This document shows positions 31,590-32,979 of a stretch of 64,000 bases of DNA, piece after piece. Within the stretch, counting starts at the first letter, position 1. Each line of letters starts with the position of its first letter. A program made the translations under genes and the position numbers. The notes beneath the pieces were generated by a model, which searched no databases, was not told where the DNA came from, and worked only from the letters and a program-made list of their open reading frames with translations. This DNA is from Escherichia coli (GTDB lineage: Bacteria; Pseudomonadota; Gammaproteobacteria; Enterobacterales; Enterobacteriaceae), in NCBI RefSeq assembly GCF_001677475.2, contig NZ_CP015229.1. One strand, given 5' to 3'.

Positions 31590-32665
31590 TGCACTAACTC
31601 AATTGCTTGCAGCAAAACAGCCCATCTTCATGGAGTAAAAATTTTGAAAGTGAAAAATTTCTTACTAAAGATGTAATAATGGGCTTTCCATATGCGACAT
31701 AACAACTGCAGTAACACAACTAATCTTTATGTGTTCTTTATATAGAGAGTAACAGCGTGATATCTGTATCTCTAAAAGAATAGCGATGTCCTGCAATCGA
31801 TGAGCACAATATATGACATTCATCACATGTATAACAATTGAATTTACATTCATACTGGTGTTAATCGGTAATATAGTAATTTAATTCTTACCGAAAGATG
31901 ATGAGCAGAGTTTTATTCTGAATATGGTTGTTTTTTGCGGTCTGCTCAGGTTGGAGATGCTACATAATGGCTTCATCTATTACTTTTTATGTCAAAAAAG
32001 CCATTTTTATAAGAATAAAACAACGATATTTAAGAGTGCTGGCAGCGGAGAAAAGGGTTAATACAGTCATTTAAGATTACTTCAGCTTTTCCTGTGGTGA
32101 AAAATGAGAGGAATTGTAGCGCAATCTGTAAAAACAATTTCTCTTAACTAATAAAAAATCGCTAATAATCATTGTGTTAGATTGATTTGTTGCATAATAA
32201 TAACAATATTATTAAAATCATTACAATCTTTAATTTAGAATAACATTTTTATGAAGGCCAGAGTACGTTAAGGGATGATGTATAGCGGTGATTGCTATTA
32301 GATGGGAATGCAACCTTGTAAAACCGTTTTGCCCTTCTTTCTCCCTTTCAACGATAAGCCAGACATAATGTGGCTGCTTAAGCCAATTGTCGCAAAGCCA
32401 AAGATCTCTCTATATAGCTAACCTCACGGTTAATCCGATTTCAGTATTACCGTGAGCAAGAACTATTTCCTTTTATATAACTCTTAAGGGTTACAAGCGT
32501 GAATGCAAATGGTAATATAATGAAATGGTGCCTGCCCGTAATGACCATAACGAATCTACCCCGACGTAAAAGATATAGAGAATAAGATGCAGTAATGCTG
32601 ATGCTTTGTTAATCAAATAACAAGATTTAAATTAATCGTAACTCATCAACGTTGTTGTTTTATTC

Positions 32666-32716
32666 GGATGTCTGAAATGATGTTGTACAGAAAACTACAT
32701 ATCATTTCAGACATCC
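32666..32716. repeat. Perfect 16-bp inverted repeat (GGATGTCTGAAATGAT-N19-ATCATTTCAGACATCC) upstream of tpsA
   Basis: Read directly: arms at 32666-32681 and 32701-32716 are exact reverse complements. Confidence 0.8.
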
Positions 32717-32979
32717 TCTAAATTGGATTTTTTTCACCCAAGGAGGAAGGAGGGGGGGACTTTTAAATTATTGTGTTTTAGTAAGTTAGGTACTTCGCCG
32801 TTCGATGAAAAAACAATAACTCTTAGTTGTTTTTTTGAGTCCTTATTTCAGCTTATTTTCCGTGATTTTTTATTGCGCCAGGTGATAGGATTTGCCGCAA
32901 TCATTTTTGCTGATATTCCGTGAGTCATCAAAAGTGATCTGCATGTCCAAAATGAATAGCATCAATAAGGAAAACGTTA

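Follow-up and report, generated by a model that had tools for sequence, protein, structure and literature searches.

The 64,000-nucleotide stretch of an Escherichia coli contig analysed here (the window) carries two divergently transcribed adhesin operons that are separated by a long AT-rich spacer, and this arrangement raises the question of what the spacer does for the genes on either side and whether a run of seven Gs within it works as a switch. The spacer occupies 1390 bp (31590..32979), between the start of a 207-aa ORF on the minus strand (31589) and the GTG start of otpA on the plus strand (32980), and the longest ORF inside it in the ORF list encodes 66 aa. Its GC content of 34.0% is about 13 points below the 46.8% of the whole window and within the lowest 2.6% of all 1390-bp segments in the stretch. 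Both the coordinates and the AT-richness of a region splitting two divergent adhesin operons, as reported in the initial annotation, were verified, and the AT-rich block really extends from ~30900 to ~33100, taking in the 207-aa ORF (32% GC).

Pfam domains place a chaperone-usher fimbrial operon to the left of the spacer and a TpsA/TpsB pair to its right. The fimbrial operon (24965..30923, minus strand; Pfam, Sakai ECs1276-1280) encodes a major subunit, a chaperone, an usher, a 444-aa tip/adhesin-like subunit and a second chaperone, and the first gene on that side is the 207-aa ORF (30966..31589, minus strand; ECs1281/Z1539, annotated as hypothetical). On the plus strand, otpA (tpsA; ECs1282/Z1542; 32980..36792) encodes 1270 aa with TPS and Fil_haemagg domains and is followed by otpB (tpsB; ECs1283; 36881..38500) with POTRA_2, POTRA_3 and ShlB domains. 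An alternative in-frame GTG start of otpA lies at 33013 with AAGGAAG before it, and both start contexts are conserved.

By sequence comparison, the locus is the homolog of a known E. coli island, O-island 47 (OI-47) / S-loop 71 of O157:H7. Gene order and orientation are the same over 20 kb at about 98% identity, running from the fimbrial operon through the 207-aa gene, the ~1.4-kb spacer, tpsA and tpsB to the acpS/SDR/FabZ/ACP/aminomethyltransferase/KAS genes. The homologous spacer of O157:H7 Sakai sits at 1,348,686-1,350,075 between ECs1281 and ECs1282, has the same length of 1390 bp and is 94.9% identical over 1390/1390 bases; to its left are the ECs1281 homolog and the Loc6 fimbriae and to its right the OtpAB two-partner secretion system. 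The neighbours grvA, fidL, a c-di-GMP phosphodiesterase gene and the acyl-carrier cluster are found in the Sakai locus as well, and OI-47 / S-loop 71 has been described as carrying grvA. The name loc6 has been given to the fimbrial genes ECs1276-1280, and OtpAB, encoded by ECs1282-1283, is a characterised two-partner secretion system. Overall, this is a regulatory spacer of an ordinary kind in an island that was already known, and its two flanking adhesin systems already have names. The new detail is modest and consists of four conserved spacer elements and a probable regulator, ECs1281.

Unlike the O157 spacer, the allele in the window is distinct and mosaic, with a best identity of 95.9% to any complete E. 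coli genome, and it has G7 where O157 has T+G5. The island in the window is ~98.3% identical to that of the nearest genomes. Because the putA/putP core genes of the window reach no more than 98.5% identity with the closest of 5421 genomes, the window does not come from an O157 strain.

Of 5426 complete E. coli genomes, 380 carry the spacer, each as a single copy with a length of 1390±3 bp; identity is 91-96% in the spacer and 96-99.5% in the flanking genes. In these 380 genomes the region of a hairpin described below (H1) is single-copy and confined to this locus, and a repeated or mobile element was therefore rejected. A search of a plasmid collection with the spacer gave no match except two E. 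coli records. An invertible promoter switch of the fimS type was likewise rejected, as 380/380 matches were single collinear pieces spanning 100% of the query; long inverted repeats flanking a segment of the spacer were not found.

It is likely that the spacer is a shared 5' regulatory region of two divergent adhesin-related operons, holding a few constrained elements and otherwise forming a putative silencing platform, in which the G7 run is incidental. On the left it would serve a cryptic NarL/FixJ-like regulator gene (the ECs1281 homolog) and the Loc6 chaperone-usher genes, and on the right otpA-otpB followed by acyl-carrier and fatty-acid-type genes. A sigma-70 promoter ~210 nt upstream of the start codon would drive the left operon, a 170-bp block next to otpA would supply the otpA promoter and a leader hairpin (H2), and H1 would form a long stem-loop on the plus strand. 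The remaining, fast-evolving part would act through its length and AT-richness as a platform for silencing of the H-NS type and for counter-silencing.

The constrained elements were located by footprinting with ten E. coli alleles, a second island clade and a partial third clade. A relative of the 207-aa ORF at 55-56% identity is present on metagenome and Logan contigs L011-L014. These contain the complete island with unchanged gene order, are 77-83% identical at the nucleotide level and have a spacer of 1293 bp; contig L015 represents the third, partial clade. The second-clade spacer had no match in the 5426 complete E. coli genomes, and nothing was found for the 207-aa ORF in 100,044 species-representative genomes. 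Only four parts of the spacer can be aligned between clades, namely 31786-31844, 32605-32636, H1 and 32810-32978. Detectable constraint on the sequence is confined to roughly a quarter of the 1.39 kb.

The same turnover can be read as a sign that the spacer is inert apart from its two proximal promoters, being decayed island DNA that once held small ORFs (Z1540, Z1541), AT-rich through mutational bias only, in which H1 is fortuitous or a palindrome at the DNA level. The spacer is indeed mostly unalignable between clades, its diversity within E. coli exceeds that of the flanking genes by a factor of 2-4, it gives no coding signal, and re-annotation has removed the small ORFs that it once held, which are transcriptionally silent. 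However, despite the turnover the spacer has kept its length (1293-1393 bp) and its AT-richness (36.7% GC in the second clade), there are 0 deletion variants among the 380 genomes, and both H1 and the 32605-32636 island, although distant from the two start codons, are conserved. We consider an inert spacer improbable for these reasons. Under the reading of a shared regulatory spacer, the retention of length and AT-richness in fast-evolving DNA is what would be expected of a platform for silencing by nucleoid proteins.

On the left side, the consensus scan predicted a sigma-70 promoter for the 207-aa ORF and loc6 on the minus strand (31808..31837), with a -35 of TTGTTA (31837-31832), an 18-nt spacing and a -10 of TATATT (31813-31808). 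This position implies a transcription start near 31801 and a leader of about 210 nt to the start codon of the 207-aa ORF. Over the whole spacer the scan called 6 sites versus 7.8 in shuffled sequences, which is not above the shuffled level. The -10 is invariant in three clades and the -35 reads TTGTTA in two of them and TTGTGA in the third, while the sequence between the hexamers has diverged, all within the conserved island 31786-31844. The predicted promoter of the 207-aa ORF and loc6 thus has good comparative support.

On the right side, when otpA of the two clades is aligned by BLAST, the match continues upstream of the gene to 32810, and the block adjoining otpA (32806..32979, plus strand) is 76% identical over 170 nt between clades and as conserved as the adjacent coding sequence. 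It contains long invariant stretches, and diversity within E. coli is 0.012-0.035. A hidden small gene in this block was rejected, with substitutions distributed 7/7/7 over the codon positions and indels between clades, and no start codon was evident in the open frame of the block in the second clade. Matches of the block in tblastn fell in several frames and on both strands and therefore point to conservation of DNA rather than protein.

It is probable that this non-coding block contains the otpA promoter together with a hairpin of the 5' leader. A candidate extended -10 of otpA, TGaTAGGAT (32883..32891, plus strand), is invariant in 13/13 aligned sequences and would put the transcription start at about 32897-32899, although the consensus scan did not call it. 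The predicted start lies at the foot of hairpin H2 (32900..32938, plus strand), in which a 10-bp stem (32900-32909 with 32929-32938) encloses a 19-nt loop. The stem is kept and 100% paired in every aligned sequence, the loop is largely different in the second clade, and both variable pairs vary through G-U, which pairs on the plus strand only; H2 may be the 5'-terminal hairpin of the otpA leader. With promoter-like elements phylogenetically conserved for both sides, the proposal that the region is a divergent control region of the fimbrial and TPS operons is borne out.

Two further conserved elements lie in the interior of the spacer. The first is a 32-bp promoter-like or operator-like island (32605..32636) with 81% identity to the second clade, which consists of a TTGTTA-N6-TAACAA palindrome followed by TTTAAATTAA and is surrounded by otherwise unalignable spacer; the right arm reads TAATAA in O157. 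The second is hairpin H1 (32666..32716, plus strand), a perfect 16-bp inverted repeat with an 8-nt loop that folds to about 21-22 bp. The core of H1, TGAAATGAT/ATCATTTCA (9 bp, both arms), is invariant in both clades, and in the main helix 96.5% of cells are paired and 3 pairs have changed on both sides. Two double changes from G-C to A-U are present in H1 of one E. coli lineage. In O157 and another allele the changed positions still pair, though solely as G-U on the plus strand, and one allele (L006) has a U-U mismatch. In the second clade the outer stem is shorter and the inner stem is rebuilt with different bases.

Taken together, H1 and H2 are 98% paired, and their compensatory and G-U changes fit an RNA of the plus strand; this covariation represents few independent events, from two clades and a few variants within E. 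coli. The invariant 9-bp core of H1 could equally mean a DNA-binding palindrome or another form of sequence-specific recognition. H1 as a canonical intrinsic terminator was rejected, as the U7 run begins 11 nt past the stem and the terminator scan left it uncalled. The motif AAATGAT occurs in H1, H2 and the 5' end of the 207-aa ORF, where 4 of its 22 matches in the window fall; its total in the window is not above chance.

We considered whether H1 belongs to an unannotated sRNA or to a long otpA 5' leader that is transcribed on the plus strand from the 32605-32636 island, with the stem-loop and the U7 run (32728-32734) serving as a terminator, an attenuator or an RNase III site that sets otpA expression post-transcriptionally; such an RNA would start near 32642 and have a 3' end near 32735. 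Several observations are consistent with such a transcript. A conserved promoter-like island adjoins H1 on its upstream side, and H1 itself has persisted in two clades, its inner stem having been rebuilt through covariation and its G-U states being compatible with the plus strand alone. U-rich sequence comes after H1 in both clades, and the plus strand folds with a z-score of -2.6. On the other hand, the z-score of the minus strand is even lower (-4.27), the second clade does not keep the -10 of the putative promoter, and the distance of the U run from the stem and the silence of the terminator scan tell against termination at H1. An Rfam scan of 31000-33500 (Rfam 15, E ≤ 1) returned noise only, including a microRNA-type match on H1 at 31.8 bits versus a gathering score of 53. 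Published Sakai data point the same way: the Hfq-CRAC supplement lists nothing at spacer coordinates, and the RNase E-CLASH supplement has nothing in the spacer and one single-read chimera inside the otpA coding region. In EDL933 the ORFs annotated inside the spacer, Z1540 and Z1541, have background reads only. An sRNA or long leader containing H1 is therefore unlikely in our assessment.

The gene at the head of the left operon may itself encode a regulator. The 207-aa protein has no Pfam or NCBIfam match, including no significant match to Response_reg or GerE, and a profile search found only 11 relatives (representatives at 50% identity) among 1.84 billion proteins. Three of its distant homologs have C-terminal, sub-threshold GerE matches (E 0.003-0.03), and the family profile aligned weakly with the C-terminal DNA-binding domain of RcsB at residues 128-179 (E 0.43). 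An AF2 model made from a 4-sequence alignment had a pLDDT of 38, which rose to 84 with the 11-sequence alignment after the profile search had added the distant homologs. Foldseek placed full-length RcsB, EvgA, FixJ, NarL and VpsT as the top PDB matches of this model, with a probability of about 1 and TM up to 0.55. Because of the pLDDT of 84 and these full-length matches, ECs1281/Z1539 is probably a divergent NarL/FixJ (LuxR-type) transcription regulator with a receiver and an HTH domain.

The predicted protein resembles RcsB and fimbria-associated NarL/FixJ regulators such as FimZ and EcpR/MatA in having a receiver and a four-helix HTH and in heading a chaperone-usher operon. It is unlike them in the lack of a significant Response_reg or GerE match, in having no cognate kinase gene adjacent and in the small size of its family, with 11 representatives only. 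The family keeps the acidic receiver residues, and the receiver lysine is replaced by an invariant arginine (R107), a further difference from those regulators. ECs1281 would be a natural candidate to act on the spacer.

A more specific arrangement would join these parts, with H1, H2, the 32605-32636 island and ECs1281 forming a dedicated module that links the control of Loc6 fimbriae to that of OtpA secretion. H1 would then lie in an island sRNA or in a ~340-nt otpA leader processed by RNase III, and ECs1281 would counter-silence through the conserved DNA islands. We regard this arrangement as speculative and give it a small chance of being correct.

Published expression data bear on the proposed silencing. 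In an RNA-seq study of EDL933 under 11 conditions, Z1540 was silent in all of them, Z1541 was essentially at background, and Z1538, Z1539 and Z1542 were at RPKM 0-8; Z1540 and Z1541 are the small ORFs once annotated between Z1539 and Z1542. These data support a largely silent locus. Table S2 of the same study has Z1542 above background in all conditions, and otpA is therefore not fully silenced. Our literature search found no H-NS ChIP or hns-mutant results for this locus, and no transcription start, terminator or protein-binding results for this spacer.

From its composition and the low published expression, silencing of the spacer by H-NS is plausible. Like the H-NS-silenced AT-rich regulatory regions of other E. 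coli adhesins, it is a long divergent spacer with a GC content about 13 points below its surroundings, lies in a horizontally acquired island (380/5426 genomes) and flanks genes with very low published expression. It differs from them in that the 10-bp high-affinity H-NS motif is not enriched: TCGATAAATT has 1 match in the spacer at 2 or fewer mismatches, or 0.7 per kb versus 1.1 window-wide.

These elements form a map of likely regulatory sites for two poorly understood O157-associated adhesin systems, comprising a promoter conserved in three clades, a strongly conserved otpA-proximal block and two conserved hairpins of RNA type. The map offers concrete targets for finding the conditions under which Loc6 and OtpA are expressed; low temperature and plant extract have been reported as inducers of loc6.

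The run of seven Gs (32752..32758) lies outside every one of these elements. It was verified within the purine-rich stretch AAGGAGGAAGGAGGGGGGGA, 222 nt before the annotated start of tpsA (otpA). This stretch and the preceding T7 run make up a poorly conserved linker (32728..32759), where diversity reaches one of its three peaks in the spacer (pi 0.113 per 50 bp). Other strains do not keep the only ORF across the tract (66 aa, TTG start), and the tract does not lie between conserved hexamers.

Homopolymers that mediate phase variation, such as the poly-G/poly-C of the Bordetella fim promoters and the contingency loci of Neisseria and Haemophilus, are usually at least 9 nt long, lie in a promoter spacer or a reading frame, and have lengths that differ between closely related isolates. 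The initial annotation raised the possibility that the G7 run varies by slipped-strand mispairing. As a contingency locus, it would alter promoter geometry or the leader through changes in length and so switch otpA (or loc6) on and off. A position upstream of an adhesin-type gene is a common setting for phase variation, and the tract shares this position with the Bordetella, Neisseria and Haemophilus examples.

The comparison of tract length across isolates that had been proposed as a check was made at several depths. None of the 380 spacer-carrying E. coli genomes matches the 71 nt around the G tract of the window (best 97.2%), and among the matches listed to this query 12/12 records span 70 nt. 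When ten E. coli spacer alleles sampled across the identity range were aligned, all ten had T+G5 (GGATGGGGGA), GGGGTGGGG, TGGGAG or TGGGAA at the site, in each case a T with five, four or three Gs after it. A variable-gap pattern scan of metagenome contigs yielded five further copies, with T+G5 or T+G3 in all of them and G7 in 0/5. In the O157/O55-type genomes, which make up 305 of the 380, one identical 71-nt allele is shared with the T+G5 of Sakai and tract length does not vary, so that for this lineage the check speaks against a variable tract. The second island clade, which is ~80% identical, has no G tract at the aligned position.

These results do not support a slipped-strand switch. Lineages do differ by 1-2 nt at the tract (8, 7 or 6 nt between fixed flanks), indicating indels over evolutionary time, but the differences between lineages include run-breaking substitutions (T, A), and in all other sequences the uninterrupted run is 5 or shorter. 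What sets the tract apart from those of Bordetella, Neisseria and Haemophilus is that the run of other strains is short and interrupted, that it does not vary in the O157 clone, and that it lies in none of the conserved promoter-like elements, the conserved candidate -10 being ~130 nt further downstream. Seven Gs are also at the low end for slippage. We consider a contingency locus extremely improbable, and a switching role of the G7 run is most likely absent.

An allele that is unique against 380 genomes and five metagenome contigs might also be a homopolymer error of sequencing or assembly, the true sequence being TGGGGG as elsewhere; one extra G beside a G run is the type of change that a miscall produces. 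Such an error would also have to include a T-to-G substitution, which is not typical of homopolymer errors. Many other private substitutions are found in the spacer, as its best identity of 95.9% indicates, and private alleles are to be expected in a lineage whose core genes are 98.5% identical to the nearest complete genome. An error is thus very unlikely. By comparison with the aligned alleles, the G7 run is instead a lineage-private change, T to G plus one inserted G, in an unconstrained purine-rich linker. Runs of seven or more G or C in the window are at chance frequency, with three G7 runs and one C7 run versus ~3.8 G/C runs of seven expected from base composition.

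When compared with ten sampled E. coli alleles of the island locus (L001-L010), the AT-rich spacer of the window (31590-32979) proved to be a haplotype mosaic. Around 31680-31880 it matches the L003-L006 type, and over its remaining length the type of L001/L010, a pattern which suggests that recombination has occurred inside the spacer. Diversity peaks at 31916-31965, 32116-32215 and 32716-32765. Across 5421 complete E. coli genomes, the best identity to the putA-putP core genes (window 1-4000) is 98.5%, with no genome at 99% or above. The window therefore derives from a lineage without a complete-genome representative.

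Beyond these alleles, we identified a second clade of the entire loc6-otpAB island as whole loci (L011-L014), with a nucleotide identity of 77-83% and a 207-aa protein that is 55-56% identical. Gut-metagenome and Logan contigs (one of them from a Hadza sample) were its sole sources, and it was not found in 5426 complete E. coli genomes or in 100,044 species representatives. A partial locus (L015) represents a third island clade.

The 207-aa ORF that heads the fimbrial side (30966-31589, minus strand), a homolog of ECs1281/Z1539, is annotated as 'hypothetical', and searches of Pfam and NCBIfam with it returned zero matches. It models confidently as a predicted NarL/FixJ-type receiver and HTH protein. 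The ECs1281/Z1539 family is very small (11 representatives among 1.84 billion proteins) and carries an invariant arginine in place of the receiver lysine.

On the other side of the spacer, the start codon of otpA is ambiguous between two GTG codons in the same frame, the annotated one at 32980 and another at 33013. The latter is preceded by AAGGAAG and directly followed by the signal-peptide-like MGKALTPIAILMMLSFPVASQAA. Sequence contexts are conserved at both candidates, and the 11 codons separating them differ between island clades. Downstream, a 15-nt gap after otpB leads into acpS on the same strand, followed in the otpB orientation by genes for an SDR reductase, a FabZ-type dehydratase, an acyl carrier protein, an aminomethyltransferase-family protein and large ketoacyl synthases (38516-45570). 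Both island clades retain this arrangement. It is conceivable that secreted OtpA is functionally tied to an acyl or polyketide product.

The heptamer AAATGAT/ATCATTT occurs in both arms of the predicted spacer hairpin H1 (32675-32707), in the 5' arm of a second, H2 (32900-32906), and in a small palindrome, ATCATCCGAAATGAT (31545-31559), which lies just within the 207-aa ORF at its 5' end. The entire window contains 22 matches, a total not above chance, and 4 of them fall in these features. In published RNase E-CLASH data, the sRNA MgrR is joined to otpA mRNA (1352836-1352859, within the coding region of Sakai ECs1282) in one chimera supported by a single read, a signal too weak to interpret.

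Some island copies show signs of decay. L012, from the second clade, has two ORFs in place of an intact tpsA (otpA; 4895-8707), and the 207-aa ORF of strain YZMc3-1 is frameshifted (L004 878-1500). Strain 2012C-4221 carries both an internal stop in its grvA-like winged-helix gene and a frameshift in its SDR gene (L001 1-2230).
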